A DNA stretch of 64,000 nucleotides from Candidatus Omnitrophota bacterium (GTDB lineage Bacteria > Omnitrophota > Gorgyraeia > JAGLLT01): assembly GCA_030632085.1 (NCBI GenBank), contig DAOVJY010000001.1, positions 271,402 to 335,401 on the forward strand. The letters run 5' to 3'. Positions 10,917 through 64,000 of the stretch are shown in pieces; the stretch's first letter is position 1; each line of letters opens with the position of its first letter. The translations under genes and the position numbers were made by a program. The notes under the pieces are model-generated. The model worked only from the letters and a program-made list of their open reading frames with translations. It had not been told where the DNA came from and made no database searches.

Positions 10917-11126
10917 TTTACACTCCTCATATAATATGTCTATTAGACGCGTTAAATAACCAATAACCAAGTTACAAGATACAAACAATATTCAAATTCC
11001 AATATCCAATCACCAAACCGCTATCCTTGTTTTATTTCTGTTTGATTATTCGAATTTGGTTATTGGTCATTGTTTGGTTATTGTATCTTGTTTCTTGTAT
11101 CTTAAAGTTATCATTTTACCCCATTA

Positions 11127-32493: not shown

Positions 32494-32561
32494 AGTCACA
32501 AGTCTAAAGTCACAAGGCACAAGATACAAGATACAAGATACAAGATACAAACAATATTCAA
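32494..32561. repeat. Tandem heptad array (NNCACAA/GATACAA x ~9) upstream of purL, ending in a 30-mer shared with the 10967-10995 region
   Basis: gtcacaa gtctaaa gtcacaa ggcacaa gatacaa x4, then acaatattcaa. The string caag[a/t]tacaagatacaaacaatattcaa matches at 29 of 30 positions between 32532-32561 and 10966-10995. Confidence 0.6.
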
Positions 32562-32689
32562 TCATCAAGAAACAATTACAATGTTGCCAGTTAAAAGTTT
32601 TTATTTTATTTGCTTTTACTTAATCCTTAGAGCTTACCATTAGCAAGCTGCTAGTAAGCGTCTTAATTCTTAATCCTGTTTTTTGTTTT

Positions 32690-35967: not shown

Positions 35968-36120
35968 ATTTGCCTCCCCCGTTATCTTTCAATAAGAATA
36001 CTACAAAAACCATTCAGCGTCAAGATATTATACAACTTATTAGTAACAAAAAAACCCGCGAGAACTTACTCTTTTGGGTTTTGGAGACTGCGGATAATTT
36101 ATTTTCATATATATGAATGA

Positions 36121-36798
36121 TTAATTTATTTGGAAGACGATAGCCACATCCATCGTGAGACTTGAACGTTTTAAGTCGCCGGGTATAGGCATAAAGGGGC
36201 TAGCCCTTTTTACTGTAGCTACAGCCGCAGAATCAAGTATGTTAATCCCCGATGATTTGATAAGACTAATATTAGCAACTTCCCCGCTCAATAAAGTCGT
36301 AAACCTGATACATGCAGCACCTTCAAGCCCTTGCTTCTTGGCCCAACTTGGATATCTGCGCGAACTTTCAATTTTCTGTTTTATCATATCCTGATATCTA
36401 AGTATAGCCTCATCTTGCGGATTTTTTACTTCAATAAATTCTTCTTTTGGTTCTGGGATATATTTTTTATTCGCAATTTCTTCTATTGCGCTATCCTCAA
36501 CTTCTTCTTTTTCCTTAGGCTCTTCTATATTTTTGGGTGTTTGCGCCTGAGGCTCTAACTCCGGCATATCTTCTTTTACCGGTTCTTTAACTTTTTTTTC
36601 CTTCCCTAATATATCTATTTTAGGTAATAGAGGTGGTTTTTCAAACTGAAGCTCAATAATAATTTCTTCATTTTCTTCTAAAATCTCTGGTGAAGATGTC
36701 AAATTAAACTTTGGCAGCCAAAAAAGAATAATGTGCAGCAAAAGAGATAAAAAAAAGAATGCTACTATTGCTTTTTCTTCGGAATAATATCTCATCAA
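36121..36798 (-). CDS. tonB: Energy transducer TonB
   Basis: An N-terminal TM helix, a Pro/Glu/Lys-rich spacer and a C-terminal TonB domain. It follows exbB-exbD. Confidence 0.75.
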   Translation of the reverse strand: MMRYYSEEKAIVAFFFLSLLLHIILFWLPKFNLTSSPEILEENEEIIIELQFEKPPLLPKIDILGKEKKVKEPVKEDMPELEPQAQTPKNIEEPKEKEEVEDSAIEEIANKKYIPEPKEEFIEVKNPQDEAILRYQDMIKQKIESSRRYPSWAKKQGLEGAACIRFTTLLSGEVANISLIKSSGINILDSAAVATVKRASPFMPIPGDLKRSSLTMDVAIVFQIN

Positions 36799-37283
36799 TA
36801 ACTTTCTGCATTCAAAGATGAATTAAGTTCATTAATCGCCGGCTCATTATAAGTTCTGGTTGATATAGCTATACCTTGAGCATTAGCATCTTTGGCTATA
36901 TCCATAATTTTAACAGCTAAACCCAGGTTAACCTTTTCATCAGCCTTCAGAATAACTGTTTTTTCCTGATTCATTTCCAACTTCTTCTCAAGAAAATCCT
37001 TAAGATTTTTAAGAGCCACTTCCTCATCATTAAGATAAACCTTATTATTCTCACTAATGAATACAATGATATTCTCTTCTTCCTGGGGCATTGCCGTTCT
37101 GGCCATTGGTAAAGATATTTTTATTGCCGGCCGCATTATAAAATTAGCTGTAAGCATAAAGAAAATAAGAAGCAAAAAAACAATATCAATTAAAGGGGCG
37201 ATATCAAAATGTGTTTTTATCCTTCTTCTTGAATCAAATTCCATACTCAACATCCTCCCCGGGACTTCTCTTTTCTTTGGCAA
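36795..37283 (-). CDS. exbD: Biopolymer transport protein ExbD/TolR
   Basis: A single TM helix and an ExbD periplasmic domain. It overlaps tonB by 4 nt. Confidence 0.85.
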   Translation of the reverse strand: MPKKREVPGRMLSMEFDSRRRIKTHFDIAPLIDIVFLLLIFFMLTANFIMRPAIKISLPMARTAMPQEEENIIVFISENNKVYLNDEEVALKNLKDFLEKKLEMNQEKTVILKADEKVNLGLAVKIMDIAKDANAQGIAISTRTYNEPAINELNSSLNAESY

Positions 37284-37896
37284 TGCCGGTGTTTTTTATG
37301 TGCAGCCATTCCAATAGCTCTTCACCGGCATCTTTCATTTGAGCATAGGTATTATCTACTCTACCTTCGAAATAATGATAAAAGATAATTGCCGGAATGG
37401 CTACAGTCATACCGGCAGCCGTAGTAATTAGGGCTTCCGCGATACCTCCGGCCAAAACGGAGGCATCAACTCTCCCGCCAAGCTCTTGAATCTTTACAAA
37501 ACACTTTATCATTCCCGTGACCGTACCCAGCAAACCAAGAAGAGGTGTTATGTGGCCTATAATACCCAAGGGCCTGAGGTTTTTATCAAGCTTTTTTATT
37601 TCTCTTGAACCTATCCTTGAAAGATTTTTTTCAATATCTTTCTCAGGTCTTTTTCGTAAATGAATACCGGTACCTAATATTTTAGCAACCGGCCCGGGTG
37701 TTTTCCGGCAAAATTTTTCAGCTTCATTCTCTTTATTATCTACAACTAAAAGCTTAACCTGTTCTAAAAAATTAGGTATCTTATTTCTTGCGCGGTGAAA
37801 ACAATGCGCCCTTTCAAAAACAATAGCAATCATCAGCACCGAACAAAAAACAATCGGCCAAATAAAAAAACCACCCTTTAATAAAAATTCAAACAT
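37234..37896 (-). CDS. exbB: MotA/TolQ/ExbB proton channel
   Basis: Three TM helices and the ExbB signature GLLGTVTGMI. Confidence 0.85.
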   Translation of the reverse strand: MFEFLLKGGFFIWPIVFCSVLMIAIVFERAHCFHRARNKIPNFLEQVKLLVVDNKENEAEKFCRKTPGPVAKILGTGIHLRKRPEKDIEKNLSRIGSREIKKLDKNLRPLGIIGHITPLLGLLGTVTGMIKCFVKIQELGGRVDASVLAGGIAEALITTAAGMTVAIPAIIFYHYFEGRVDNTYAQMKDAGEELLEWLHIKNTGIAKEKRSPGEDVEYGI

Positions 37897-37947
37897 ATAT
37901 TTCTCCTTTTAATCCCACCCACCCAACCTTTTTTGTTTTCTATTTTA

Positions 37948-40143
37948 CTAGAACGATAATTTCATTCCCGCGTAAATAATTCTGCCGTAATAAGGAGCAT
38001 ACATAAAGGCTGCATCATCCGGCCTTTTGTCTTTTTGGATTTCATCAAACAAATTCCTTGCCCCAATATAGGCCGTAAGATTTTCTCTCAAGAAATTATG
38101 CTTAGATATTTTCATATTAGCCACCCAAAAACCTTTAGTATGCACAATTTCAGAACCGGGGTTATCCACGTCATCATTTTCATAATAATCTATATACATT
38201 CTGCCGGTATAATCCGTCCCAAAATTTATCTCCCAGTCTTTTGGTGTCAGGGCAAAACCTACTCCGGAGGTAAACTTTGGAACTCTGGAAATATGTTTAC
38301 TATCTGAAGCGTATTGATTTCCGTGAACCGGATGATGGACCCAATCGGCTCTTTCATTATCATATTTGGCATCGGTATAGGTAAAATCCACCTCAAGCTG
38401 AACCAGATCAGAGAAAACAAAATCTGAACCAACTTCTACGCCCTGCGTATAAGCATCGCCCAAGTTCTCCCATTCATAATCATAACCCATTGCCCTAGCC
38501 GTAGCACTAGCATCAACTAAACCTATCTTATTTTCTAAATTTGTTCTAAATAAACTCACATAAGGTACAAACCGGCCAATCTTATAATCAGCTGAGAGGT
38601 TTGCGCCAAGCGATTCTTCAGACTTAAGGTCCCCAGGCTTAAAAACTCTGGGAGAACCACTGCAAAGATGCAAATCCTCAGAAAATCCATAAGGAACTCT
38701 AAACCCTTTCCCAACAGCGAGTCTTAACGAAAGGTCATTTATAGGCTTATACATCAAACTTGTCCTGGGATTGAAGGATTTCTCATTTAATTCATTTGAT
38801 ACTGACTTTCCGTAAGTATCTCCGCTACCCGCAAAACTATCTTCTGAGCGGTGAATATCATATCTAGCGCCTATTAACCAGGTTAGATTATCTAAAATTG
38901 CTATCTCATCCTGGAGATAAATACCATATTCATGGGCGTGCTTCTCGCTGGTTGACTCATACGCGTTTCCATAATCAGAAGCAGTATCATCAACAACAAC
39001 GTATTTACCGCTCTCATCAAGCTTATTGTAACTATATTGAAAACCCCCCAAAAACTGGTGCCTTTCACCTATCAGGCGATGGTAATTAATATCAATGTTA
39101 TATTGTTGCTCTTTAGCTCTATACGGCTCCATTTCATTTAATGACGGCTCCGCGTCAGCATGTGTACTTTTATAATCTCCTAAGAAAGTATCGTTGGTAG
39201 CATCACGATAGTGTTGAAACATGGAAAAAGTCATATTAAACATATCAATATCAGAAAACGGTTTCTCATAACCGGCCTGCAATTCATATCTGTCGGAATC
39301 TATGCTTTCTGAAGCTGCCGCAAACGGATTAGTATAGGTTTCCAGCTCACCGCCTTTTCTTTCTTCACTATAAATTCGAGCGCCAAGAGTCAATTTATCC
39401 TCACCAATAACATCTTTAAAATTTAATCTCGTACCTAAAGTATTAGACCTTGACCAAACTCTATCCAGCATATGACTACTGCCGGGCTTTTCACCATCAT
39501 ATATTTCATCACCCTCATCTCTTTGGGCATATATTAAAACATCTACATTTTCAGTCGGATATGACCCCAATATAGAATATTTATTAGTTCTATGTTCTCC
39601 AAATACGGTTTCAACTTCAAAGGCCGGATCTTCAGATGGTGTTTTAGTAATAACATTAATAACACCGGCAATAGCACTGGAACCATATAAAGCGGAACCC
39701 GGCCCCTTCACCACCTCAATTCTATCAATCATTGATGCCGGTATCTGCTGCAGGCCGTAAACCGAAGTTACCCCGGTAAATAATGGTTGCCCATCTATTA
39801 ATATTTGGACGTGCCCCGATTCCAAACCCTGCATTCGCACATCGGAAAAATTACAATATGAACATTGTTGTTCAACTCTTATACCGGGAACACTTTCCAA
39901 TGCTTCATAAAGATTTGTAGCTCCCTTAGCGCTAATCTCATCAGAACTTATAACTTCCGTTCTTATGGGCACATCACTTAAGATTCTTTCCGTCTTGGTA
40001 GCTGTAACAACTACCTGCCCCAAATCGTAATCGGAGGCATCACCTTCAGCCCCGACGTTATTCGACACTGAAAATAAAAAAACACAAACTAAAATAGGCA
40101 GAAAACATAAAGATACCGACTGCCAAGCAAATAAACGTTTCAT
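37948..40143 (-). CDS. TonB-dependent outer-membrane receptor
   Basis: A signal peptide, a plug domain and a beta-barrel ending in a C-terminal aromatic residue (LSF). Confidence 0.85.
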   Translation of the reverse strand: MKRLFAWQSVSLCFLPILVCVFLFSVSNNVGAEGDASDYDLGQVVVTATKTERILSDVPIRTEVISSDEISAKGATNLYEALESVPGIRVEQQCSYCNFSDVRMQGLESGHVQILIDGQPLFTGVTSVYGLQQIPASMIDRIEVVKGPGSALYGSSAIAGVINVITKTPSEDPAFEVETVFGEHRTNKYSILGSYPTENVDVLIYAQRDEGDEIYDGEKPGSSHMLDRVWSRSNTLGTRLNFKDVIGEDKLTLGARIYSEERKGGELETYTNPFAAASESIDSDRYELQAGYEKPFSDIDMFNMTFSMFQHYRDATNDTFLGDYKSTHADAEPSLNEMEPYRAKEQQYNIDINYHRLIGERHQFLGGFQYSYNKLDESGKYVVVDDTASDYGNAYESTSEKHAHEYGIYLQDEIAILDNLTWLIGARYDIHRSEDSFAGSGDTYGKSVSNELNEKSFNPRTSLMYKPINDLSLRLAVGKGFRVPYGFSEDLHLCSGSPRVFKPGDLKSEESLGANLSADYKIGRFVPYVSLFRTNLENKIGLVDASATARAMGYDYEWENLGDAYTQGVEVGSDFVFSDLVQLEVDFTYTDAKYDNERADWVHHPVHGNQYASDSKHISRVPKFTSGVGFALTPKDWEINFGTDYTGRMYIDYYENDDVDNPGSEIVHTKGFWVANMKISKHNFLRENLTAYIGARNLFDEIQKDKRPDDAAFMYAPYYGRIIYAGMKLSF

Positions 40144-40244
40144 ATCTCTACTCCTTCATTGTTCCCTCTGGCTGTCCAGTCGGTCTTTTAAAATTAACTC
40201 ACTTTTTTTGTTAGCCCTGCGTATACAGTAGCTGCTTTTTCAAC

Positions 40245-40391
40245 TTAAAACCTTTTTTTCTCTTTTTTTTCTATCTGCACAACTTCCGAATTATGTATCG
40301 TGACCACCACCTCTCCAAAGTTAATTTGTTCTATGCAATTAATGATTTCCTCTAAAATGTTCTTGTCTTTATTATTCTGAGAGTCATTCAT
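40245..40391 (-). CDS. DUF2292/YezD-like small protein (48 aa), absent from the ORF track
   Basis: Translation gives MNDSQNNKDKNILEEIINCIEQINFGEVVVTIHNSEVVQIEKKEKKRF, which matches the YezD pattern GEVxIxVxDGKVVQIEKxEK. It overlaps the upstream small ORF by 8 nt. Confidence 0.5.
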   Translation of the reverse strand: MNDSQNNKDKNILEEIINCIEQINFGEVVVTIHNSEVVQIEKKEKKRF

Positions 40392-40593
40392 TTTTATTCT
40401 GTCCTGTTATTTCCGAAAGTCCTTTTTCTATAAATTTTGAACAGGCATTTCTAATCAAATAAGCAAATCCCATAAACGCTTCTTCTGAAAAATGCAAAGA
40501 AACGCCTTTTAAATTTATATGGATATTTCCACAAGGGCATTTGAAAACATTACCCACTTTTTCAGTTTTCTCGAGATAATTAACTTCATCCAT
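40384..40593 (-). CDS. Hypothetical small Cys-containing protein (69 aa)
   Basis: An ORF with a CPCG motif. It is the first gene of the putative DtxR-controlled operon. Confidence 0.35.
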   Translation of the reverse strand: MDEVNYLEKTEKVGNVFKCPCGNIHINLKGVSLHFSEEAFMGFAYLIRNACSKFIEKGLSEITGQNKNE

Positions 40594-40631
40594 AATAAAG
40601 CTTCCCTTCTTTTTAAATTTGATGATAATTG

Positions 40632-40646
40632 TTAGATGTCTCTAAC
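40632..40646. promoter_or_regulatory. Candidate DtxR-family operator TTAGA-N4-TCTAAC upstream of the small-ORF/TonB-dependent-receptor/exbBD/tonB operon
   Basis: ttagatgtctctaac has the same TTAGA-N4-TCTAA palindrome as the site upstream of dtxR. Its architecture matches the IdeR/DtxR box core TTAGG-N4-CCTAA. Confidence 0.4.
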
Positions 40647-40663
40647 TTTACAATCAAAAAAAA

Positions 40664-41161
40664 TTATGGTTCTTTCTTTTCTGTCGCAAGCTCACGCATC
40701 TTACATTTAGGCCTCTTACCCGTTTTTATATAATAGTTGAATCCCTTTAGCCATTCGGGCTTCTTGCCATTTAAATCACCTTCAACAAACTGCATAAATT
40801 TAGCTAATTTGCTAAATGTTTGCGAACTAATAGCATGCTCCATTTTACACGCGTCTTCACTTGCAATACCTTTATTAATGCCCAAAACAGTTGAAAGAAA
40901 CTTTAATAACGCGTCATGCTTGCTTTGGATATTCCCGGCAACTTCTTCCCCATCCGGAGTGAGTTTCACGTACCCATATCTTTCATGATCAACATATCCT
41001 TTTCCGGAGAGTGTCTTGAGGGCCGCGTTAACACTTGAACTTTTAACCCCAATAGATTGGCTAATATCACGTACTCGCACTACGTCATTTTCCTTTTTCA
41101 AGGCAGCGATAGCCTCTAAATAATCTTCCATATTTGAACTTAATTTTCTATCTCTCATCAC
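40664..41161 (-). CDS. DtxR/MntR-family metal-dependent transcriptional regulator
   Basis: An N-terminal wHTH (MEDYLEAIAALKKENDVVRVRDISQSIGVKSSSV) and a metal-binding/dimerisation domain. Confidence 0.85.
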   Translation of the reverse strand: MMRDRKLSSNMEDYLEAIAALKKENDVVRVRDISQSIGVKSSSVNAALKTLSGKGYVDHERYGYVKLTPDGEEVAGNIQSKHDALLKFLSTVLGINKGIASEDACKMEHAISSQTFSKLAKFMQFVEGDLNGKKPEWLKGFNYYIKTGKRPKCKMRELATEKKEP

Positions 41162-41228
41162 TGATCTTCACCTGATAATTCACCTTATTTTAGACACATC
41201 TTTAATTTTTAGACTAATCTAACAAATT

Positions 41229-41243
41229 CTTAATTCTTTGTCA
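41229..41243. promoter_or_regulatory. Candidate autoregulatory DtxR-family operator TTAGA-N4-TCTAAC
   Basis: ttagactaatctaac, in the promoter region of the dtxR-like gene. Confidence 0.4.
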
Positions 41244-41290
41244 AGTATTTTTTTAAAGCATCTTATTCCTATTTGAATTATTCTCCAACA

Positions 41291-41363
41291 AATAACCCGA
41301 AAGAACTTAATCTTTCGGGTTAATGATTATAGTACCCTAAACTTATGCTAAACATAACGGATA
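41291..41363 (-). repeat. Degenerate copy (a) of the box-plus-terminator repeat family, 3' of the patatin gene
   Basis: The hairpin AACCCGAAAG-aacttaat-CTTTCGGGTT is identical to that of copy (d). The adjacent box tagtaccctaaacttatgctaaacataacggata has about 22/36 identity to the consensus. Confidence 0.5.
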
Positions 41364-41390
41364 ATTTAATTTTACAAAAAATTAGACTGT

Positions 41391-53764: not shown

Positions 53765-53812
53765 AGAGACATTCTATCAAAATTTTCTCATGTATTTTTT
53801 TCAAACTCCTAA

Positions 53813-53885
53813 TAAAAAACCCGAAAGATTAATTTCTTTCGGTTTATAATTTGGTAGCTCCAGGCCATGCTAACAATTAGGGATA
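53813..53885 (-). repeat. Degenerate copy (b) of the box-plus-terminator repeat family
   Basis: The hairpin AAACCCGAAAG-attaattt-CTTTCGGTTT is followed on the minus strand by a U6 tract. The box ttggtagctccaggccatgctaacaattagggata has about 24/36 identity to the consensus. Confidence 0.5.
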
Positions 53886-54337: not shown

Positions 54338-54562
54338 TATAGCTCCTTTTAGTGAATGCCCCTGTTGTTTAAGAACTTAATCCCATAATTATATCACACT
54401 CTGCCTTAGAGAAAACCTTTCTTAAATATTATAAGGCTTATAATAGGATACTATTAAGCACAACACCTATTTGATGTTACTTGTATTTCGCGTATTTGAC
54501 AAGTGTGGTGTTCTATGTTATGTTTATAATAGCTTCTTTAAAAAGAGAACAAAACCTTTAAA

Positions 54563-55300: not shown

Positions 55301-57709
55301 ATGATAATAACATTTTTAACTCTTTTCTTAGCCGCTGTTGCTTTCTTAATATATGAAATACTGTTAATGAAAACCTTAAGCATAGTCGGCTGGAGCCATT
55401 ATGCTTATATGGTTGTAAGCCTTTCTATGCTGGGCTTGGGTTTTAGCGGCGTAATTTTAGGCCTCTTTCCTAAATTTTTCCGGCAAAACCGCGACATTTG
55501 TATATTAATCGGCGGTTTCCTGTTCAGCCTTATGCTGCCTATAACTTTTTACATAAATCAAAAACTGCCCTTAAATTATCTTTATCTGGTATGGGACTGG
55601 CGGCAGTTCATATATATAGGGGTAAGTTATTTTTTATACGGAATTCCTTTTTTAATAATCTCTACCATATTAGCCATTTTCTTCATTAGGCACCCTAAGA
55701 AAACAAATCAAGTATATTCGGTAAACCTGTTCGGTTCGGGGCTTGGTGTTTTCTGCGCTGTCGTTATTATGCATTATGTTCAGCCGGAAAAGTATATCTT
55801 TGTATGCAGTGTTTTGGGCGCTTTAATGGCTTTTGTTTGGGGACTAAGATACAAAAAGTTAAGCAAGAGACTTATTCTCAGCTTCGTTTTTATAATAATC
55901 TTTTTAATAAACTTCTTTCTCATCCCCTCTTCTTTAATACAATATATCTCTGAATATAAAGGACTGCCTTCGCTTTTAAGATTACCGGGAACAAAAATAG
56001 TAGATACATACTTTAATCCTTTCGGCTATCTGCATGTTGTAGAAGGCAAAAAGGTAAGAATAGCTTCAGGTTTGAGCATAACCTATAAAGAGAAGATACC
56101 GTTACAAAAAGCTATTACATTTGACGGTGATGCCCCCTCTCCTATTTTAGATCCGGACAATATAAGTTCCGCTTTTTTTGATGATTTAATTTTTTCAGCC
56201 GCTTATAGCGTTAAGTCAAAACCTAAAGTACTTCTGATAGGAGCCGGTGGTTTTGGCAACGCTCTGCTGGCTAACTATCATAACAGCAGATACATTAATG
56301 TATTAGAGATAAATCCCAAGGTTATTACAGCGCTAGAAAAGAATATGACAAGTTCTTTTGGCCGGTGGATAAAAAAGGCAAATGTAAAAATAACCAAAAC
56401 AGACGCCCGAAGCTACATAGAAAAATCTCAAGAGGAATTTGATATTATTCAAATGGATCCCGCCGGCACCCTGACTTCGTCCGCTTCCGGACTATTCGCG
56501 CAAAATGAAGACTACTTAAATACCGTTGAATCATACAAACTTTTTATAAATAGACTTGCCCCTGATGGTATATTTATGATAAGCCGGTGGATGAGCACAC
56601 CGGCAAAAGGTGGAATAAAATTATTCGCTACCGGAGTTAGGGCATTAGAAGAGCTCGATATAGAAAACCCCCAAAACAACTTAGTCTTGATTAAAAACTG
56701 GGACATTATAACCCTGCTGATAAAAAAAGAACCCTTTACTGCGACCGAACTAAAAAATATAAAAAATTTCTGCAATAAAAAACATTTTGATATTTCGTAT
56801 TTTCCCGAGATACAAAAATCCCAGGCAAACCGCTTTCACATTCTGCCTGAGCCAATATATTATCTGGCGGCGCAGAGCATAATAAACAAGCAAGCGCGAG
56901 AAGATTTTTTTACAAATTACATATTTAATGTTAGGCCGGCTGTTGACAATAAACCTTACTTTTCACATTTTTTTAAATGGTCCGCCCTGCCTTATCTTAT
57001 TGGAACTTTAGGTAGAGAGTGGATTCCTTTTTCTGAATATGGTTATTTAATGCTCTTGGCTTCTTTCGTTCAATCTTTGGTGGTAGGTGGATTACTTATA
57101 CTTTTGCCTTTAGGAATTTTGGTTTTTAGGCGCAAAAAAGAAAACAGCGTTAAATTTAAATTTAATACCTGGTTCTATTTTGTATTTTTAGGCTTATCAT
57201 TTATGATTTTAGAAATGGGCTTAATTCAAAAGTTCATCCTTTTTCTGCATAACCCTATATATTCCGCCTCTATTGTAATAGGTTCATTTCTTACCATCTC
57301 AGGTATTGGGAGCATGATAAGCAAAAGGCTTTTTAATAAACAGGTGAAATATCAGATAATACCTTTTATAATAATTATAATTTTAGCCATTTTATATGCT
57401 TGTTTTCTTGATCCACTTTTTTCCAAACTAATGGGATTAAATATTTATATTAAACTCTTGCTTTCGATTATAATTATTGCCCCTTTGGCTTTGCTTTTAG
57501 GCATTCCTTTTCCCCTCGGAATGAGAAAAATATCTCCCACCGGTGAAGTCAACACAGGTATAGCTTGGGGATGCAATGGGTTTTTCTCGGTAATAGGTGC
57601 TATTTTAACCCCTATATTAGCCATGCTTTTGGGGTCTCAAATCGTGATTTTGATAGGCGGGCTAGGTTATCTTTTGGCAATGCTTATGTGGAAGATTAAG
57701 TTTGACTGA
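55301..57709 (+). CDS. Polytopic membrane protein with a central spermidine-synthase-like (aminopropyltransferase fold) domain
   Basis: About 8 N-terminal and about 5 C-terminal TM helices flank a Rossmann methyltransferase-like domain (VLLIGAGGFGNALL...IIQMDP). Confidence 0.7.
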   Translation: MIITFLTLFLAAVAFLIYEILLMKTLSIVGWSHYAYMVVSLSMLGLGFSGVILGLFPKFFRQNRDICILIGGFLFSLMLPITFYINQKLPLNYLYLVWDWRQFIYIGVSYFLYGIPFLIISTILAIFFIRHPKKTNQVYSVNLFGSGLGVFCAVVIMHYVQPEKYIFVCSVLGALMAFVWGLRYKKLSKRLILSFVFIIIFLINFFLIPSSLIQYISEYKGLPSLLRLPGTKIVDTYFNPFGYLHVVEGKKVRIASGLSITYKEKIPLQKAITFDGDAPSPILDPDNISSAFFDDLIFSAAYSVKSKPKVLLIGAGGFGNALLANYHNSRYINVLEINPKVITALEKNMTSSFGRWIKKANVKITKTDARSYIEKSQEEFDIIQMDPAGTLTSSASGLFAQNEDYLNTVESYKLFINRLAPDGIFMISRWMSTPAKGGIKLFATGVRALEELDIENPQNNLVLIKNWDIITLLIKKEPFTATELKNIKNFCNKKHFDISYFPEIQKSQANRFHILPEPIYYLAAQSIINKQAREDFFTNYIFNVRPAVDNKPYFSHFFKWSALPYLIGTLGREWIPFSEYGYLMLLASFVQSLVVGGLLILLPLGILVFRRKKENSVKFKFNTWFYFVFLGLSFMILEMGLIQKFILFLHNPIYSASIVIGSFLTISGIGSMISKRLFNKQVKYQIIPFIIIIILAILYACFLDPLFSKLMGLNIYIKLLLSIIIIAPLALLLGIPFPLGMRKISPTGEVNTGIAWGCNGFFSVIGAILTPILAMLLGSQIVILIGGLGYLLAMLMWKIKFD

Positions 57710-57745
57710 TGCGGAAGCCCTAACGGAAGTCAAACATTACGGATA
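57708..57745 (-). repeat. Degenerate box-only copy (f), 5 nt 3' of the MBL-fold gene stop
   Basis: gcggaagccctaacggaagtcaaacattacggata aligns without gaps to the box consensus, with about 20/35 identity (gccctaac vs gccccaac and a shared cattacggata tail). Its position relative to the stop codon matches copy (c). Confidence 0.35.
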
Positions 57746-57750
57746 GATAT

Positions 57751-58680
57751 TTATTTAACATAGGTATTTTTTAGAAATTTCTTAGTACTAACCTTACCCT
57801 TGGCATAATCTTCATGCCAGCTTTTAGGAACAGGCATATCTTTATACAACTGCCTGCGTTTAGCTTCAAGTAACATTCTGGGTCTTTTCATGAAATCGGC
57901 CGCGCAAATAACTTTTTTTCCTGTCTCAAGAGATAGGCGACTTAACCATCTAACTCCTTCCAAATTCCTCAACAAATGATGGTCAAGAATTAAAATATCA
58001 ACTTTAAAAGCAAGTTGTTTGGCGTTGTGCCAGGCTCTTTCAATTTGATTTTTAGAAAGTCTGGATAAATAAAGAGGAGGTCCACCAGTCAGTACTATAT
58101 TAGGAGACCAAGATAATATTTTAAAGATTGCTTCATCATTAAGGAGTTGAATATCAGAAGCATGTACAAATACATCTCTGCCTTCCTCGAATTTCGTCAT
58201 CATTACTGTCTCTGAATTATCATTTGCTTCTCCATGAGGCACCGATTTAGAAAAAGTCATTGGTCCTTTTCTTTTTCCTTCTACTGAAATCAAATTTTTC
58301 TTCAGGTTAAGAGACAAAGACTCTACTCGTTTTTTCTCAATAGCGGACAAATGGGACAAATCTTTGCTCAAAATCCTGATTTTTTGATTTAAGCCAATTA
58401 CTCTTTTAAGGGCGAGTTGATAAGGATTAGCATTTGCTAAAGGGATATGGTCTCCATGAAAATGGCTAATTACTATATCAGTAGCTTGCGACCATCTTTT
58501 TATAATCTTTTTTTGTATCCTCTCACCTACTGCTACCTGAATTGGATGGGGCAGCAAATCATATCTTCTATAACCTAAAGCTACTCCCGGGTCAATTAGA
58601 ACTTTACGGTTGCCGGTTTTTACAAAGCAACATAGACCTCTAACCCCTAAAGACTCAGCTCCTATAATTTCAATATCCAT
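57751..58680 (-). CDS. MBL-fold metallo-hydrolase
   Basis: An HxHxDH motif (SHFHGDHI) and further His/Asp ligands. Confidence 0.7.
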   Translation of the reverse strand: MDIEIIGAESLGVRGLCCFVKTGNRKVLIDPGVALGYRRYDLLPHPIQVAVGERIQKKIIKRWSQATDIVISHFHGDHIPLANANPYQLALKRVIGLNQKIRILSKDLSHLSAIEKKRVESLSLNLKKNLISVEGKRKGPMTFSKSVPHGEANDNSETVMMTKFEEGRDVFVHASDIQLLNDEAIFKILSWSPNIVLTGGPPLYLSRLSKNQIERAWHNAKQLAFKVDILILDHHLLRNLEGVRWLSRLSLETGKKVICAADFMKRPRMLLEAKRRQLYKDMPVPKSWHEDYAKGKVSTKKFLKNTYVK

Positions 58681-58974
58681 CTAACACCATTATTCTATCT
58701 TCTCCAAACGTGCTCATGGCAATTAGAAATGTCATAAGAATTAGGGATGTTGCTTAAAGTTTAAATTTACGCAAACACTCTATGCGGCTGTTGTTATAAG
58801 GAATTTTAATATTATACATACATATTATACATTACGCGTATATAATTTTCAAACTCAGTTCTTTGGTTCTATTTCGCATTTCATCTGTACTAACATAATA
58901 TATGAAGTTCGTATGATAAGGAGTTTGTGGCAAAATGAAAGATATGTCTGTTTATGAATCTTAGATAACTCAAC

Positions 58975-59047
58975 AATAAACCCGAAAGAAATTAATCTTT
59001 CAGGTTGTTTTTATGGTAGCCCCAACCTGTGCTGTTCACTACGGATA
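58975..59047 (-). repeat. Copy (c) of the box-plus-terminator repeat, immediately 3' of mazF
   Basis: The hairpin AAACCCGAAAG-aaattaat-CTTTCAGGTT is followed by the box ATGGTAGCCCCAACCTGTGCTGTTCACTACGGATA. The box ends 5 nt before the mazF stop codon. Confidence 0.6.
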
Positions 59048-59052
59048 CTTTA

Positions 59053-59391
59053 TTACACTCCAATAATTTCATTTAATCCTTCAACCACAAGACTTAACTC
59101 TTCAGGCAATATACTACCGGCTTTTTTTCCTAACCGCTTAACCGACAAAGTGCGAATTTGGTTTATTTTAACCCACGATTTTTTAGGTAATTTTGAACCG
59201 CTAAGTTCTAACGTTAACGGAAATCCCGCTCGCTGAGACTGACTTGTAAGAGCAACTGCTATAACAGTACCAGATCTTTCATTAAAAACTTCATGGCTAA
59301 GAATAAGTACAGGTCGTTTACCGGCCTGCTCGCTTCCTCTAACCGGATTTAAATCCGCCCAAACAACATCACCCCTCAATATTCCGGCCAT
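59053..59391 (-). CDS. mazF: MazF/PemK-family type II toxin endoribonuclease
   Basis: [26 protein letters not shown] is the typical PemK/MazF N-terminus. Confidence 0.85.
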
Positions 59392-59618
59392 TGTTCAATC
59401 TCCTCCGAAAAACCTTCCTCCGCTATAGCTTGTTCAAATGAGGAGTCTAATTTCGCGCATTCCCTGGCAAGGCGGCTATGATCAAGGCGTGCCAATTTTT
59501 CCCTAACCGCGTCCTGCACAATCTTGCTTCTGCTTGGAAATACATGGGATTTAACAAGCCGATCTAATCTAGCCAACAACTTATGTTCAATACTAATAGC
59601 TACTTTTGATGTTCTCAT
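59376..59618 (-). CDS. Ribbon-helix-helix (CopG-like) antitoxin partner of MazF
   Basis: 80 aa with an RHH N-terminus ([18 protein letters not shown]) and an acidic C-terminus. It overlaps mazF by 16 nt. Confidence 0.7.
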
Positions 59619-59732
59619 GATTGCCTCCTTTGGTATTACTATACATCATACCGGAAGTTTTTACAAGTATATTTTGAATCCTTGCTTTTATTTCGTAATT
59701 TGTCTGTAATAACATAAAATGAGGCGCCAACA

Positions 59733-59804
59733 AATAACCCGAAAGAACTTAATCTTTCGGGTTATCAACATGGTAGCCCCAACCCGTGCTGTTCACTACG
59801 GATA
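59733..59804 (-). repeat. Copy (d) of the box-plus-terminator repeat, 3' of abiEii
   Basis: The hairpin AACCCGAAAG-aacttaat-CTTTCGGGTT is followed by the box ATGGTAGCCCCAACCCGTGCTGTTCACTACGGATA. Confidence 0.6.
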
Positions 59805-59869
59805 GGTTATTTCTATTAAATCTTTGCAATTTTTTCGCCCATCATTATATCATAATTCTTTCTAAAATT

Positions 59870-60784
59870 TTATTTCCATGGTCCGGAAACTTTCCATTTC
59901 GCATTAAATTTCTCATTTTTATTAATCGCAATAAGTGGTTTAATAAGAAACTTTTCTATCTCTCTGGCTATTATGTTCAACTTTTCCGGTACATACTTAA
60001 TATCTACCTTTTTCAGAAAGGCCCTCCATAATGTCTGACGATCGGACTTTTCGTCATAAATTTCTCCGGCAAACAATGGTTTACATTGTGGTAAAAAAGT
60101 TTTACGCTGTTTAAAAGTTCTTTTTAACGCTTCAGCAAGCCTTAATCCGTCAAAGTTAAACTGACGCATCATGAGCCAAATATCATAAAAATCTTTCATC
60201 CGGCTATTAAGAAGGCCCAGTTTTATCATAGCTTCAAATTTCTCACTAATAACGCTCTCCGCCGGATATCCTTTAAGTTTAGGTTTAGGAAAATCTAAAA
60301 TAACAGGATATTCAATTATTTTCGGCTTTGGATAAATGCTATCTCCAAAGCCTAAATCAATTTGCATAGGAATGCGAGAACGCTCAAGCACTCCGACAAA
60401 CTTAACCCGCACTCCTTCATAATCGGCATCTTCTTTGATGCGTTGACCTTTCACGCCATTAGAATCAAATATAATACCATCTGAAATCACATCTATTTTA
60501 CAAATATCCTTCATCATTTTCTCAATACTAAATATCTGGTTATCATATTGCGCTGAAAAATCTATATCAAGGGTTGCCCTTCGCTCGGGCACATGCCACA
60601 CAGTAAACATCAAAGCCCCCTTAAGAATAAACTTATCCGCATATTTAGACTGACTAACACGATAAAGAAATCTCTCTATTCCATAATATTGCAAAACCTC
60701 TGAAAATGGACGATTGCTTTCTCTCGCCTTATTTTGAAGCTGAGCCCGGATAGAGGCTTTTAAATTTTTAATGTCTTTTTTCAT
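59870..60784 (-). CDS. abiEii: AbiEii/AbiGii-family nucleotidyltransferase toxin (type IV toxin-antitoxin / abortive infection)
   Basis: The nucleotidyltransferase motif KGALMF...DIDF (GG/GS...DxD), a length of about 300 aa and a 4-nt overlap with the upstream AbiEi gene. Confidence 0.75.
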   Translation of the reverse strand: MKKDIKNLKASIRAQLQNKARESNRPFSEVLQYYGIERFLYRVSQSKYADKFILKGALMFTVWHVPERRATLDIDFSAQYDNQIFSIEKMMKDICKIDVISDGIIFDSNGVKGQRIKEDADYEGVRVKFVGVLERSRIPMQIDLGFGDSIYPKPKIIEYPVILDFPKPKLKGYPAESVISEKFEAMIKLGLLNSRMKDFYDIWLMMRQFNFDGLRLAEALKRTFKQRKTFLPQCKPLFAGEIYDEKSDRQTLWRAFLKKVDIKYVPEKLNIIAREIEKFLIKPLIAINKNEKFNAKWKVSGPWK

Positions 60785-61383
60785 ATCATTGTTTCAAGCA
60801 TTGGTTTAATAATTTTATGTACACGGCAAATCTTAGCGTATTTCATTATTTCGAGTGGTTTTATGCCCTTTACGGTAACCGCTATCTTAAGTGCATCCAT
60901 GGCAATATTTACACCTATTCTATTGCGAAACTTAAAACAATCAGCGACCGTTTTAGCAAGGCTGTAAACTCTGATTTTATGCCCTTCAGCTTGATGCACT
61001 TCAACGCCGGCATTCCAAGTTTTAACTGAAAAACGATAAAATCGTACTGGTGGGTATTTAATTTTATTGGTACGAGTCCCCGCGGGAATTGCAATATCTA
61101 CATACCCGGGTATCTCGTTCGTTGCTTCATGAAAAAAAAGGGCCGACACAAGACAAACAATCCCTCTTAGCGCCTGAAGAGACGCAATGACAAGATCAGG
61201 ATGCGGTCCAAACGTATAATGAGTCATCCGGTAAAGTCCCCTGGCAATCTTCTCTATTTCACCTTCTTTTTCAAGTTCTTTAAGCGTATCCGAATGAAAC
61301 CCCGCTTTTATAATTGAAGAAAACCGTGCAATGCCACCATGTTTTTTAAAATAGTTAAACATTTTCTCTGTTTTTTGTTTCAT
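60781..61383 (-). CDS. abiEi: AbiEi-family antitoxin / transcriptional regulator
   Basis: An N-terminal wHTH-like region (FSSIIKAGFHSDTLKELEKEGEIEKIARGLY) and a C-terminal AbiEi domain. It pairs with AbiEii. Confidence 0.7.
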   Translation of the reverse strand: MKQKTEKMFNYFKKHGGIARFSSIIKAGFHSDTLKELEKEGEIEKIARGLYRMTHYTFGPHPDLVIASLQALRGIVCLVSALFFHEATNEIPGYVDIAIPAGTRTNKIKYPPVRFYRFSVKTWNAGVEVHQAEGHKIRVYSLAKTVADCFKFRNRIGVNIAMDALKIAVTVKGIKPLEIMKYAKICRVHKIIKPMLETMI

Positions 61384-61407
61384 AGCCTCTCCGTATAAAT
61401 TGTCATT

Positions 61408-61421
61408 ACTTATAAATAAGT
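61408..61421. promoter_or_regulatory. Perfect 14-bp palindrome ACTTATAAATAAGT in the abiEi promoter, a candidate AbiEi operator
   Basis: ACTTAT/ATAAGT inverted repeat 24-37 nt upstream of the abiEi ATG. AbiEi proteins autoregulate through promoter inverted repeats. Confidence 0.4.
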
Positions 61422-61539
61422 ATATACACTTTATACGATTATGTCAATGCTTTTTTTATTGCAGGGAAAAGTTACTATACACATAGCACAATGCCAATTC
61501 TTTATAACAACTATTCATAATGATATGGTGAATAAAAAA

Positions 61540-61618
61540 TCCTCTCCTAATTTTATTTTAAGAGAGGACTTCTATACTAAACTATGGTAGCCCCAACCCG
61601 TGCTGTCCACTACGGATA
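61540..61618 (-). repeat. Copy (e) of the box-plus-terminator repeat, with a different hairpin
   Basis: The hairpin TCCTCTCCTAA-ttttatt-TTAAGAGAGGA is followed by the box ATGGTAGCCCCAACCCGTGCTGTCCACTACGGATA (1 mismatch to copy d). A U6 tract follows on the minus strand. Confidence 0.6.
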
Positions 61619-61904
61619 CTTTATTTATATTTACAGTTGATGGCATATAACACTAGCGCTCATAGGCCACTGGACAGAAAACGTGGCGTTCCTTGTGCAG
61701 CGATTGCATCAGACATTGAATTATATTACTCCAGAGATGATGGAATTAAAGACTGTCGCTTAATTAATCTGTCTGTTAAGCCCGGCATAGCTCATTATGT
61801 CTCTTTAATTCATTCTTGGCTTGTGCTGGGAAAACGTTAAGAAAAATAATGCCTAGGAAAAGATACGCTAGCCTTGTATCGTCAGGAGGAATGATTAAAA
61901 CACT

Positions 61905-62531
61905 TTATCGATGAAATAGTTTTTTATATTCCCCTTCTAAAACAGATTGCGCATCATCTATAATTTTGTCGTATTTCGCTATTAAATTTAGCAAGCCGCG
62001 CTTGTAGCACATCAGTAATCCAATTGTGCAGATTATAATAAGTGCGATTGCAAGAGCCCAAGACCGCAACTGCTCTATTATTATAACATTAGAGATAAGT
62101 TCATTAATAAGAACTCCTATAATGCAGATAATAGCTACAATAAAATACACGATACCGTGAAACGAAATAACTGGTCTTGTTTCGTTCTTTCTATCAATAA
62201 CATCAAGAGCGAATGTATCTTTTAGGCGCCTCTCGATTTTCGTATCTTCTATTTGTTGTATCTCATCATTCTTGTCTTTTAATTCATTAATTTCATAATT
62301 AGAGTATGCTAATCCTATACCTATGCTTGACATAGCAAAAACTGCAAAGAAAATGTTGGTTGTTGCGCTTGAGACACAGGTAGGAATTTTATGCTTATAA
62401 CAAAGCATGCCTATTATAATTAAAAGAGCAAAATAACTAAAGCGGATAACGTGTTTTATAATTGGCGTAGTTTGTTTTAGTTTGAAAAAAGGAAGAAAAA
62501 AAATCATTTTCAGGAAGGGATTTTCTGCCAA
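61905..62531 (-). CDS. Hypothetical 4-TM membrane protein (duplicated 2-TM hairpin plus charged helix)
   Basis: Four hydrophobic helices arranged as two 2-TM hairpins, each followed by a Lys/Glu-rich helix. It overlaps the upstream gene by 22 nt. Confidence 0.5.
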   Translation of the reverse strand: MAENPFLKMIFFLPFFKLKQTTPIIKHVIRFSYFALLIIIGMLCYKHKIPTCVSSATTNIFFAVFAMSSIGIGLAYSNYEINELKDKNDEIQQIEDTKIERRLKDTFALDVIDRKNETRPVISFHGIVYFIVAIICIIGVLINELISNVIIIEQLRSWALAIALIIICTIGLLMCYKRGLLNLIAKYDKIIDDAQSVLEGEYKKLFHR

Positions 62532-63037
62532 ATGGCATCAAATGTCTCTTCTAATTTTTTGGCTACTGGCGGGTTGTAAAAGTTAACATTACCCTTAACT
62601 ATACTATCCTCATCATTTTCGTCTTCTGGGTTATGCAGATCTTCTATCCGGTATCCTTTTTTATCTACCACAGCAAAGTGTTTAACCCAATTTTCTTGTA
62701 TACGCTCAGAGTCGACTGTTTTTATCTCAACCTTTCCTCCAAAATCGCTTTTCAATGTGTCTAAAATTTCATCCATTTTAATTTTGTGCCAGACAATTAC
62801 CTTTATTGATATGTTTTTTTTCACAAGTTTTTTAAAAGATTCTATCATTCCTTGGTGATTAAAGAACCGTTCGCTCAAGGTACCCGTGAGAATTTTGACA
62901 CTTTTTTCCGCTTTCTCAAATAGCAAATCTGTAAGATATACTGCATGCTCTAACGTGCTATTTGGTATGTTTATATTCTCTCGTCTATCTCTTGCTAATT
63001 TCGCTCGTTCTTTATAGTCGACTATGTCCATGTTCAT
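62510..63037 (-). CDS. Hypothetical soluble protein with PLD-like-domain resemblance (no intact HKD motif)
   Basis: The pattern KSVKILTGTLS...ISIKVIVW...VKHFAVVDKKGYRIED...FDAIWQ resembles the secondary-structure rhythm of a Nuc/PLD-like domain. The spacing does not fit HxK-x4-D. Confidence 0.4.
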   Translation of the reverse strand: MNMDIVDYKERAKLARDRRENINIPNSTLEHAVYLTDLLFEKAEKSVKILTGTLSERFFNHQGMIESFKKLVKKNISIKVIVWHKIKMDEILDTLKSDFGGKVEIKTVDSERIQENWVKHFAVVDKKGYRIEDLHNPEDENDEDSIVKGNVNFYNPPVAKKLEETFDAIWQKIPS

Positions 63038-63497
63038 GCCTCCTGTTATTTTAAGTTCTGTATCCCCATAAGATTATCTCGCTATGTTCACCACGTACAC
63101 TTCTGATGTGATTCATTTTGATGAAAAAAATAGCACGAAATCGAACATTCGCGCTCTTGTATACAATTAAGTACTCCTTCAATCATAAACCTCTCCTTGG
63201 GGACCATAAAAGGCTCGTTGCAGGTTATAGTTTGGATGTTTAAAGTATACATCACTCGCTTGCCCCTTGTCAAGTCCAAACTAATATTTCTTTTTGGCTC
63301 CCATTGTGCTATTTAAATTCTCAACATTGATAAAGCCTGCTCCCTGAAGGAGGAGAAGTTCACGGCAATGGACTTACCAATATCTCCCAATTTCTTAAAT
63401 CAATCAGTCGCACTTTTATCCAATTTCGAATATTGCCACACTTTTTTATCCATTTTTTTACCATAACAATTAATATCCAAACTGTTTTCTTTAAGTA

Positions 63498-64000
63498 TCA
63501 CGGATACTCTATTTCCATCAAATCTTCGCAATTCCTTATTCCCATTATTATATCATACTCCGCATTTTTATAAATCATAATTTTAGCCGTTTTTTCTCTT
63601 GGATTTACTATTATTTCTTTTACAAATTGCCTTATAAACTTCTTCTTTTCCTCCATAGCACCATGCTCTAAAACATCGTTAAAGTTATCTAAATAGCCTA
63701 ACATCTTCTTTGTAATTCTCTCTATATCAGTTTTCCCTTCCAGGTTTGTTGTAATTTTAATACGTTCATCTAAAAGCATATCTCTTGTATGCTCCAGCTT
63801 ATTTATATTGGCCACTGCCCGGTCTAAATTGAGGCCCCTTTCTATCGCTTCCTCCCAATTCCTGATTTTTAAAGCTATTTCCTTAATCTGTATATCCAAT
63901 TCCCTGAGCCTGTTATCTGACCTATCCTGCATTAGAGAGATCTTTTCTCTCAGCTTATTTTCTAAATCTTCTCTCCACGTTCCGGTATCCAGCTTTTCCA
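63498..64000 (-). CDS. Large serine recombinase, C-terminal coiled-coil/tail region (partial; N-terminus beyond the window end)
   Basis: The ORF is open upstream to position 64000 (...EKLDTGTWREDLENKLREKISL-MQDRSDNRLRELDIQIKEIALK...). The coiled-coil and the terminal EEKKKFIRQFVKEIIVNPREKTAKIMIY match the typical large-serine-recombinase C-terminus (EEKRELIRLLIDKIEV...KIEIHY). Confidence 0.5.
   Translation of the reverse strand, partial: EKLDTGTWREDLENKLREKISLMQDRSDNRLRELDIQIKEIALKIRNWEEAIERGLNLDRAVANINKLEHTRDMLLDERIKITTNLEGKTDIERITKKMLGYLDNFNDVLEHGAMEEKKKFIRQFVKEIIVNPREKTAKIMIYKNAEYDIIMGIRNCEDLMEIEYP

Follow-up and report, generated by a model that had tools for sequence, protein, structure and literature searches.

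Positions 57714–64000 of the DNA analysed here (a window of 64,000 nucleotides from a Candidatus Omnitrophota bacterium; assembly GCA_030632085.1, contig DAOVJY010000001.1, positions 271,402 to 335,401) carry a series of short modules, toxin–antitoxin (TA) and abortive-infection (Abi) genes among them. We consider it probable that these modules constitute a tandem cassette array, akin to the staphylococcal cassette chromosome (SCC) or to tycheposon islands, that was laid down at tRNA-Glu(CTC) by large serine recombinase (LSR) elements and that is now without a recombinase of its own. Judged from sequence comparison, this part of the window is the distal two-thirds of a composite island of ~9.5 kb. 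An initial annotation had described an accessory island with an LSR running off the window; we find the island to be genuine and the recombinase to be a relic.

Extent and boundaries of the island

The end of the window is contained in a scaffold of the European Nucleotide Archive (ENA; L002), which matches it with 0/10503 mismatches and extends it by 10 kb (window position = 74077 minus L002 position). On this scaffold, tRNA-Glu(CTC) lies at L002:6748–6825, 3.25 kb past base 64000, and the accessory island spans ~9.5 kb from this tRNA (window-equivalent position 67251) to ~57714. The expectation that the other boundary and its attachment (att) sites lie beyond base 64000 is correct for the boundary; the repeats inside the window are themselves att relics. 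All substantial open reading frames (ORFs) in 57751–64000 are on the minus strand, and the G+C content is unchanged across the region.

With respect to the distal boundary, sister Omnitrophota genomes (L011, L012 and L013) share ~90% DNA identity over pcm and the 802-aa gene, and the homology with L011 and L012 starts at 57707/57711, which agrees with the island start of 57708 in the initial annotation. Past this point the gene content of L011 differs (a PNP/PRT fusion, several unknown genes and its own copy of the repeat motif described below), and the content of the relatives diverges exactly between the att relics and the 802-aa gene. The region is not syntenic in any of the three genomes, which carry different genes, and the description of an accessory island with typical TA/Abi cargo holds. 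Its modules are separated by repeat units, as had been noted, namely three copies of a 35-nt motif and a degenerate fourth at 57714–57751. These att relics, of which the copies designated J1 represent one junction type, are as follows:

57714–57751, minus strand: rep0, the degenerate outermost att relic TATCCGTAATGTTTGACTTCCGTTAGGGCTTCCGCAT (nhmmer E 0.0067; profile of recombinase tails plus motif)
59013–59053, minus strand: rep1 (J1), assigned as an attR-type relic, with the P arm AAAGTATCCGTAGTGAACAGCACAGGT and then TGGGGCTACCAT, the tRNA-Glu 3′ end (motif; inverted match to the tRNA flank)
59770–59888, minus strand: rep2 (J1) with a relic of ~85 nt before it, derived from the 3′ end of a recombinase gene (nhmmer E 1.9e-26; tblastn against P0100)
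61584–61624, minus strand: rep3 (J1), assigned as an attR-type relic (motif; profile search)

Read from the tRNA outward, the island comprises attL at the tRNA, an MqsR-like/MqsA-Panacea pair, a 69-aa ORF, a DUF2971 gene, the relic recombinase, the DUF7931 gene with a transmembrane (TM) protein gene, rep3, AbiE, a recombinase-tail relic with rep2, MazEF, rep1, a metallo-β-lactamase (MBL)-fold gene and rep0, followed by the 802-aa gene. Rep0 comes straight after the stop of the MBL gene and, on its other side, meets the stop codon of the convergent 802-aa gene; its sequence and position identify it as the distal end marker of the island. It is the outermost and also the most degenerate copy, as would be expected if new arrivals insert next to the tRNA.

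Repeats as attachment-site relics of tRNA-Glu

The 35-nt motif TATCCGTAGTGAACAGCACGGGTTGGGGCTACCAT (gene strand) occurs at 59013–59047, 59770–59804 and 61584–61618 with at most 1 mismatch, where 0 copies are expected by chance. Each copy, at spacings of 757 and 1814 nt, is positioned immediately past a module, with a terminator hairpin close behind it. The motif's right portion corresponds to the final 12 nt of tRNA-Glu(CTC), TTGGGGCTACCA, and each of the three repeats contains the final 14 nt of the tRNA region, GTTGGGGCTACCAT, of which 12 nt belong to the tRNA itself. Immediately 3′ of tRNA-Glu(CTC) lies TCACTACGGATACTTT, a perfect 16-nt inverted copy of the left arm of the motif, positioned at exactly mirror-image offsets around a central T|T. 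Joining the two sides reconstructs a 54-bp attP, AAAGTATCCGTAGTGAACAGCACGGGT|TGGGGCTACCATCACTACGGATACTTT, with perfect 16-nt terminal inverted repeats centred on T|T, and the circular junction in its attP form is predicted to read P arm-TT-GGGGCTACCATCACTACGGATAC. The same dyad geometry was observed in L016 and L015.

Given the P arm overlapping the recombinase stop (see below), the central TT, the displaced tRNA 3′ end and the mirror symmetry, we assign tRNA-Glu(CTC) with its flank as attL and the three repeats as attR-type sites, an assignment made from sequence. The predicted attB is accordingly placed at the T-arm/acceptor junction of tRNA-Glu, with the central TT. tRNA-gene 3′ ends are the classic target of tyrosine integrases, and serine integrases usually target protein-coding genes.

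Other identities were considered for the repeats. A known structured RNA is not supported, as an Rfam search of the region was negative both at the gathering threshold and with E values up to 5, and a CRISPR repeat was rejected on the grounds that there are only three copies, spaced 757 and 1814 nt apart, with a terminator after each of them. Scans of genome, metagenome and viral contigs for exact patterns of the 35-nt motif returned nothing, with patterns that were too strict, relatives differing at 2–4 positions.

Each inner unit of the array starts with a terminator hairpin immediately after ...CCAT, which is exactly what is required of any element that integrates into the 3′ end of a tRNA gene. 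These hairpins are listed below.

58972–59006, minus strand: terminator hairpin at the start of cassette C0, after the tRNA-like CCAT of rep1 (member of the 5-copy hairpin family)
59727–59763, minus strand: terminator hairpin at the start of cassette C1, identical to the 41285–41321 copy (sequence)
61535–61572, minus strand: terminator hairpin at the start of cassette C2 (sequence)

The near-identical copies of the hairpin family AACCCGAAAGAnnTTAAnnTCTTTCGGGTT lie at 36035–36081, 41276–41322, 53811–53845, 58961–59007 and 59718–59764, two of them being 37/37 identical. Such a distribution bears on the idea that the repeats are generic intergenic elements of terminator or REP-like type, with the modules gathered by homologous recombination at a hotspot and no site-specific recombinase involved. 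The presence of the family at five places in the window, non-island sites included, speaks for this idea, as do the rearrangement breakpoints between relatives, where segment swaps fall at terminator hairpins. We nonetheless regard it as very unlikely, since the 35-nt motif is distinct from the hairpin, holds a recombinase stop codon (in intact relatives) together with a tRNA 3′ end, and has an inverted partner beside the tRNA at symmetric spacing.

Intact recombinase relatives

The link between the motif and LSRs comes from relatives in which the gene is intact. Specifically, the recombinase stop codon TAG lies inside the 35-nt motif in P0103 on L006, L007, L008 and L010, and also in L021, L020 and L024, the context being ...TAC CCG TAG TGGACAGCGCGGGTTGGGGCTACCA. 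At the other end of elements of this LSR family are the inverted P arm and then a copy of the tRNA 3′ end with a terminator hairpin. In CP070837, a complete Omnitrophota genome, restriction–modification (RM) and other cargo of ~9.5 kb comes after tRNA-Glu(TTC), and then the recombinase P0109, which is in turn followed by a copy of the 3′ end of that tRNA-Glu(TTC), with the same mirror symmetry at 20/31 positions. Likewise, in L038 and L050 a tRNA-Glu lies 6.6–9.5 kb upstream of a member of the LSR family, and the arm and hairpin that come after this tRNA are homologous.

Two further sites, L015:11620–11690 and L020:2189–2250, hold a complete attP-like site (P arm, core and inverted P′ arm) after the recombinase stop in a chromosomal/contig context, as is expected for tandem elements or circular forms. 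The cargo of intact members (L004, L006–L009, L015 and L016) consists mostly of defence genes: NgoPII-type RM with Vsr, Cap2-like E1/E2 and JAB with an MBL-like protein, GmrSD, phospholipase D (PLD) and NYN nucleases, BpuJI-type RM and MNT-like nucleotidyltransferases. A search of a literature library found no paper linking Omnitrophota with serine recombinases.

A truncated recombinase at the window edge

The initial annotation had placed a large serine recombinase at the end of the window, running off its edge and mobilising the island. The features at this edge are the following:

63498–64000 plus 76 nt beyond, minus strand: 5′-truncated large serine recombinase relic (homology to P0004; PHROG phrog_95)
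63464–63482, minus strand: J2 motif GTTTGGATATTAATTGTTA, a second junction repeat type, just after the relic recombinase stop

On L002 the ORF comprises 192 aa; it starts with GTG and reaches no more than 76 nt past base 64000, and a word-indexed homology search found the identical 192-aa protein on a 349–414-kb scaffold. Its intact counterpart from an exhaustive HMMER search, P0004, is a 543-aa recombinase with Resolvase, Recombinase and Zn_ribbon_recom domains, and the 192-aa ORF aligns to residues 357–543 of P0004 only (93% identity, E 8e-108). As PF07508 and the PF13408 zinc β-ribbon of P0004 occupy residues 193–296 and 316–373, the relic begins at ~357, inside the ribbon. The part that remains is homologous to the C-terminal coiled-coil/tail region of bona fide LSRs. 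The PHROG integrase profile phrog_95 (651 positions) matches the ORF over positions 414–564 (E 7e-8), and Pfam gave no match to it at all: neither the resolvase catalytic domain PF00239, which carries the serine nucleophile, nor PF07508 or PF13408 was found.

The missing part is not encoded nearby. A tblastn search with intact P0004 on L002 and the 64-kb window recovered only residues 358–543 and no N-terminal part, and no other recombinase was found by tblastn in the window or the next 10 kb (74 kb). Nucleotide homology to all intact recombinase genes begins abruptly at L002:10018, upstream of which lie a 3′ relic of an unrelated 185–188-aa gene and, before that, the DUF2971 gene; an independent Logan assembly (L003) is identical across the relic junction. 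The lack of an N-terminal part, the abrupt start of homology, the unrelated upstream genes and the agreement of two assemblies lead us to read the ORF as a 5′-truncated relic, and the island is consequently not self-mobile at present. The initial annotation had itself stated that its call would fail if the ORF proved to be a truncated pseudogene lacking an upstream catalytic domain, and this is what we observe. Many ~190-aa homologues start near the same position, and a conserved stand-alone family restricted to the C-terminal part was considered; it was rejected, as the ~190-aa matches have heterogeneous N-termini and form a continuum of fragment lengths.

An intact LSR that continues past the window and at present moves the island as a whole, the two att sites both lying beyond the window, is barely credible in the light of these results. 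In its favour, the ORF is recombinase-derived and one island boundary does lie beyond the window. The ORF, however, has only 192 aa, homology to intact genes starts at L002:10018 with the relic of an unrelated 188-aa gene and then DUF2971 upstream, there is no other recombinase in the window or the next 10 kb, and the ENA and Logan assemblies agree. What survives of the mobilisation claim is that the island appears to have been built by LSR elements; the recombinase now present is a relic that has no catalytic domain, within the ORF or upstream of it.

The relic also differs from the J1 array in its junction. It is followed by J2 (...AAAACAGTTTGGATATTAATTGTTA) and not J1, and J2 likewise follows intact P0004-type recombinases in L019 and L053. 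The truncated recombinase was therefore probably not the maker of the J1 sites, its own 3′ junction being of J2 type as in its intact relatives. A partner copy of J2 lies at L002:8922–8940, upstream of DUF2971, and the relic is probably part of a J2-bounded element, ~1.7 kb long and nested within the J1 array. Other J2 copies (AAAACGAAGTTCGTATATTAATTGTTA-like) were seen at L004:4639–4657, L011:1234–1252 and 9114–9132, and L019:1798–1816 and 2779–2797; the motif sits upstream of cargo genes and directly after P0004-type recombinase stops. J2 may be the att site of the P0004 recombinase subfamily, with a target other than a tRNA end.

Cassette recurrence and proposed history

One cassette of the array recurs in another sample. 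Contig L053 encodes a MazF 94% identical to that of the window, and the block of tail relic, J1, hairpin, mazE, mazF and J1 shares 84.6% identity over 838 nt with window positions 59013–59850. The homology stops exactly at ...CCAT, and the neighbours in L053 differ: one gene there encodes an Mrr-like nuclease and two others are unknown, and all of them lie downstream of a recombinase gene of P0001 type. L053 retains 5 nt (CACTA) of the inverted arm at the left end of the cassette that are lost in the window, and the cassette left ends are on this ground read as eroded canonical element ends. A more distant MazEF (L054) has a core-like context and no motif. The recombinase-tail relic of ~85–90 nt is common to several cassette ends, here and in L053; that of rep2 is 79–80% identical to intact recombinase tails over 85 nt. 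L053 additionally contains, at 1814–1848, a site of hybrid make-up, where the recombinase-tail P arm TATCCGTAGTG runs straight into a longer tRNA-Glu stretch, TTCAAATCCCGTTGGGGCTA; the site's inner left half is B-type rather than P-type, which is unexpected for a simple attR.

These data also bear on an integron-like platform, in which non-autonomous cassettes with a "recombinase-tail + J1" site would be captured, excised and reshuffled by an intact LSR encoded in trans. We judge this explanation unlikely. Several features accord with it: the J1 copies are 97–100% identical with unalignable flanks, the same MazEF cassette is J1-bounded in two arrays with different neighbours, arrays lie directly downstream of LSR genes in L053, L004 and L006/L007, and the tail relic is a shared repeat family. 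A circularised cassette, however, would be without a symmetric P′ half-site, the left ends matching the inverted arm at 1–6/12 positions; no intact LSR is known in this genome; one shared cassette only was found; and recent common descent with homologous recombination explains the same data. The broader proposition, an LSR-run gene-capture platform of Omnitrophota whose cassettes (TA, Abi, nucleases and possibly nutrient-uptake operons) carry a "recombinase-tail + P-arm + tRNA-end" site, seems doubtful to the same degree. If it were true, an LSR acting in trans would stack cassettes at tRNA-Glu, excise them in nested sets and exchange them, and the array in the window would still be mobilisable.

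Our preferred account, a tandem array left by LSR elements at tRNA-Glu(CTC), can be set out as follows. The elements would target the T-arm/acceptor junction of the tRNA, and integration at the central TT would rebuild the tRNA (attL) and leave the P arm with the displaced tRNA 3′ end on the far side (attR). Rebuilding of the tRNA is suggested by the stop codon in the P arm and by the inverted arm and tRNA 3′ end at the other element end. Successive insertions beside the tRNA would have shifted older elements outward; the recombinase genes of older units would have been lost, with short tail relics remaining, and addictive or defensive cargo would have persisted, every piece under a promoter and terminator of its own. 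Were a matching LSR and a directionality factor supplied in trans, attL could still pair with rep1–3.

Several points weigh against this account. The left ends of the cassettes at rep1–3 are without the inverted P′ arm of canonical element ends, and the shared tail relic suggests, as far as sequence can tell, that "tail + J1" was propagated as a repeat unit rather than by independent deletions. The hairpin family also occurs outside the island, and the junction after the relic recombinase is J2 instead of J1. All comparison sequences are metagenome assemblies, and no excision or integration product was observed. Finally, the tandem-array route is unproven, since LSRs are, to our knowledge, not expected to use attL as a target.

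Cargo modules and neighbouring segments

The modules listed in the initial annotation were all recovered on the minus strand at their given places by ORF analysis, Pfam and PADLOC:

57751–58680, minus strand: cassette C0, MBL-fold protein, 309 aa (Pfam Lactamase_B E 3e-4, below cutoff)
59053–59391 and 59376–59618, minus strand: cassette C1, mazF and the ribbon–helix–helix antitoxin gene mazE (PemK, PF02452, E 1e-29; RHH_1 E 2e-5)
59870–60784 and 60781–61383, minus strand: cassette C2, abiEii and abiEi (Pfam PF08843, PF13338; PADLOC)
61625–61904, no strand assigned: non-coding stretch of 280 nt between the membrane-protein gene and rep3 (comparison with L011)
61905–62531, minus strand: protein with 3–4 TM segments, 208 aa (hydropathy; overlaps the DUF7931 gene)
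62510–63037, minus strand: DUF7931/PLD-like protein, 175 aa (Pfam DUF7931 E 1e-6, above cutoff; weak PLDc_2; weak PADLOC MkoC)

The MBL-fold call is borne out by an HFHGDH motif, of the HxHxDH metal-binding type, and by the NCBIfam model NF003288 (PRK04286, an MBL-fold "hypothetical protein" family; E 7e-116, 386.6 bits versus a curated cutoff of 409), with Pfam below threshold. L011 has other genes in place of C0, and the C0 protein shows no relationship to the MBL-like protein carried as cargo by the intact element L004. Pfam and PADLOC likewise confirm MazEF and AbiEi/AbiEii. The mazE and mazF ORFs overlap by 16 nt in the arrangement of a type II TA system, and abiEi and abiEii overlap by 4 nt with the antitoxin/regulator preceding the nucleotidyltransferase, an order that marks them as a predicted AbiE system of the type IV TA/abortive-infection class (AbiEii, E 8e-42 in Pfam and 3.5e-98 in PADLOC; AbiEi, 5.9e-64 in PADLOC). 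The "unknown two-gene module" corresponds to the DUF7931/PLD-like and 3–4-TM proteins. Exact-protein look-ups with the DUF7931 protein and AbiEii returned nothing, and, with the products of the relic ORF, MBL gene and DUF7931 gene as queries, sequence searches of the PDB turned up chance-level matches only. A promoter scan was at chance level (25 found versus 23.4 expected), three 11/12 matches upstream of the DUF7931, abiEi and MBL genes being worth noting. A prophage was rejected, as PHROGs yielded only the integrase-tail match and one family of unknown function for the island, and no virion, terminase or lysis genes.

In and next to the non-coding stretch, positions 61584–61706 share 85% identity with sequence upstream of a J1 copy in L011, and an opposite-strand 67-aa ORF (61637–61840) has no family match; the gap could be a relic gene or a small RNA. 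Beyond the window, the cargo closest to the tRNA (L002:7058–8471) is a pair in which an MqsR-like toxin (weak, E 4e-4) adjoins a 349-aa antitoxin of unusual architecture, an MqsA zinc-ribbon/helix–turn–helix protein (TIGR03830, E 8.5e-28) fused to a SocA/Panacea domain.

Related traces were seen elsewhere in the window. At 54372–54416 (minus strand), between pcm and a carbonic-anhydrase-like gene, a short recombinase 3′-end relic adjoins the point where homology with the relatives ends (54410–54477), and at the same place L013 has a relic of 102 nt that is more evident (77% identity), after which comes another gene; with the relics on the island side, recombinase relics thus border the conserved pcm/802-aa block at either end. 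Positions 36035–41376 hold a 5.3-kb iron-uptake module (DtxR-like repressor, TonB-dependent receptor, ExbB, ExbD and TonB) that is bracketed by the same terminator hairpin (36035–36081 and 41276–41322), and a degenerate recombinase-tail/P-arm relic at 41329–41376 adjoins a patatin gene. In L012 this module is replaced by a hydrolase gene and the pcm/802-aa pair. The module may represent a further variable segment of cassette type; alternatively, the L012 contig may be chimeric. Intergenic heptamer tandem repeats (ACAAGAT or its complement), each followed by a shared ~50-nt sequence, at 10955–11103 and 32512–32579 are unrelated to the island.

Significance

These results correct the annotation of the recombinase, which is here a relic, and define from sequence an Omnitrophota LSR family with a predicted 54-bp attP overlapping its own stop codon and a predicted tRNA-Glu attB. 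A defined attP/attB pair is what makes serine integrases useful for genome engineering, and the predictions are directly testable. The island also shows defence and TA modules accumulating as small repeat-bounded cassettes in a streamlined uncultivated phylum, as in SCC and tycheposon islands. The advance is modest, the pattern itself being already known; what is added is the predicted attP/attB pair of an uncharacterised recombinase family and possible cassette exchange.

Comparison with known systems

In staphylococci, SCC and SCCmec elements are inserted at the 3′ end of rlmH by the LSRs CcrAB or CcrC, and psi-SCC elements also occur. As in composite SCC islands, the elements described here are delivered by LSRs to a single conserved gene, whose 3′ end serves as the insertion point and is restored, and they pile up in tandem with short direct repeats of the integration site between them, some units being without a recombinase. 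The two systems differ in target (tRNA-Glu rather than rlmH), in host (uncultivated Omnitrophota) and in the much smaller units found here (0.76–1.8 kb), and the repeat here takes in the stop codon of the recombinase together with the P arm. Among NCBIfam models, CcrB matches intact P0004 best (E 1e-25); membership of the Ccr family was rejected, the score being 90 bits versus a cutoff of 900.

The array also resembles sedentary chromosomal integrons in its short, co-oriented, self-contained cassettes with TA cargo, each ending in a conserved repeat that resembles a recombination site. Unlike integron cassettes, those here have their own promoters and terminators, and Pfam found no tyrosine recombinase domain (IntI) in any island ORF. 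Integron attC sites were rejected by inspection, as the repeats are without RYYYAAC/GTTRRRY boxes or an R″/L″/L′/R′ hairpin and are followed by ordinary terminators. A further comparison is with the cis-mobilizable elements (CIMEs) of the accretion–mobilisation model, described with tyrosine integrases in Firmicutes. They too are att-bounded segments without recombination genes, derived from decayed integrative elements, that could be mobilised by a related recombinase; the differences are the tyrosine integrases there and an island here that is known from sequence.

In the tycheposon tRNA islands of Prochlorococcus, tandem integrations are parted by partial tRNAs and accompanied by fragmented integrases, and a minority of the elements carry a large serine recombinase (bioRxiv 10.1101/2020.12.28.424599). 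The present island shares the position beside a tRNA, the outward displacement of older elements (proposed here), the partial tRNA copies between units and the degraded integrases, and it shows the same signature: one end is marked by the full tRNA, partial copies of it recur between the tandem units, and the integrase is degraded. Most tycheposons, in contrast, use tyrosine recombinases and often carry replication modules, whereas the island's Pfam annotations include no primase, helicase or polymerase. Partial tRNA copies in the island are also only 12–14 nt long, as is expected of a serine recombinase that needs no long core.

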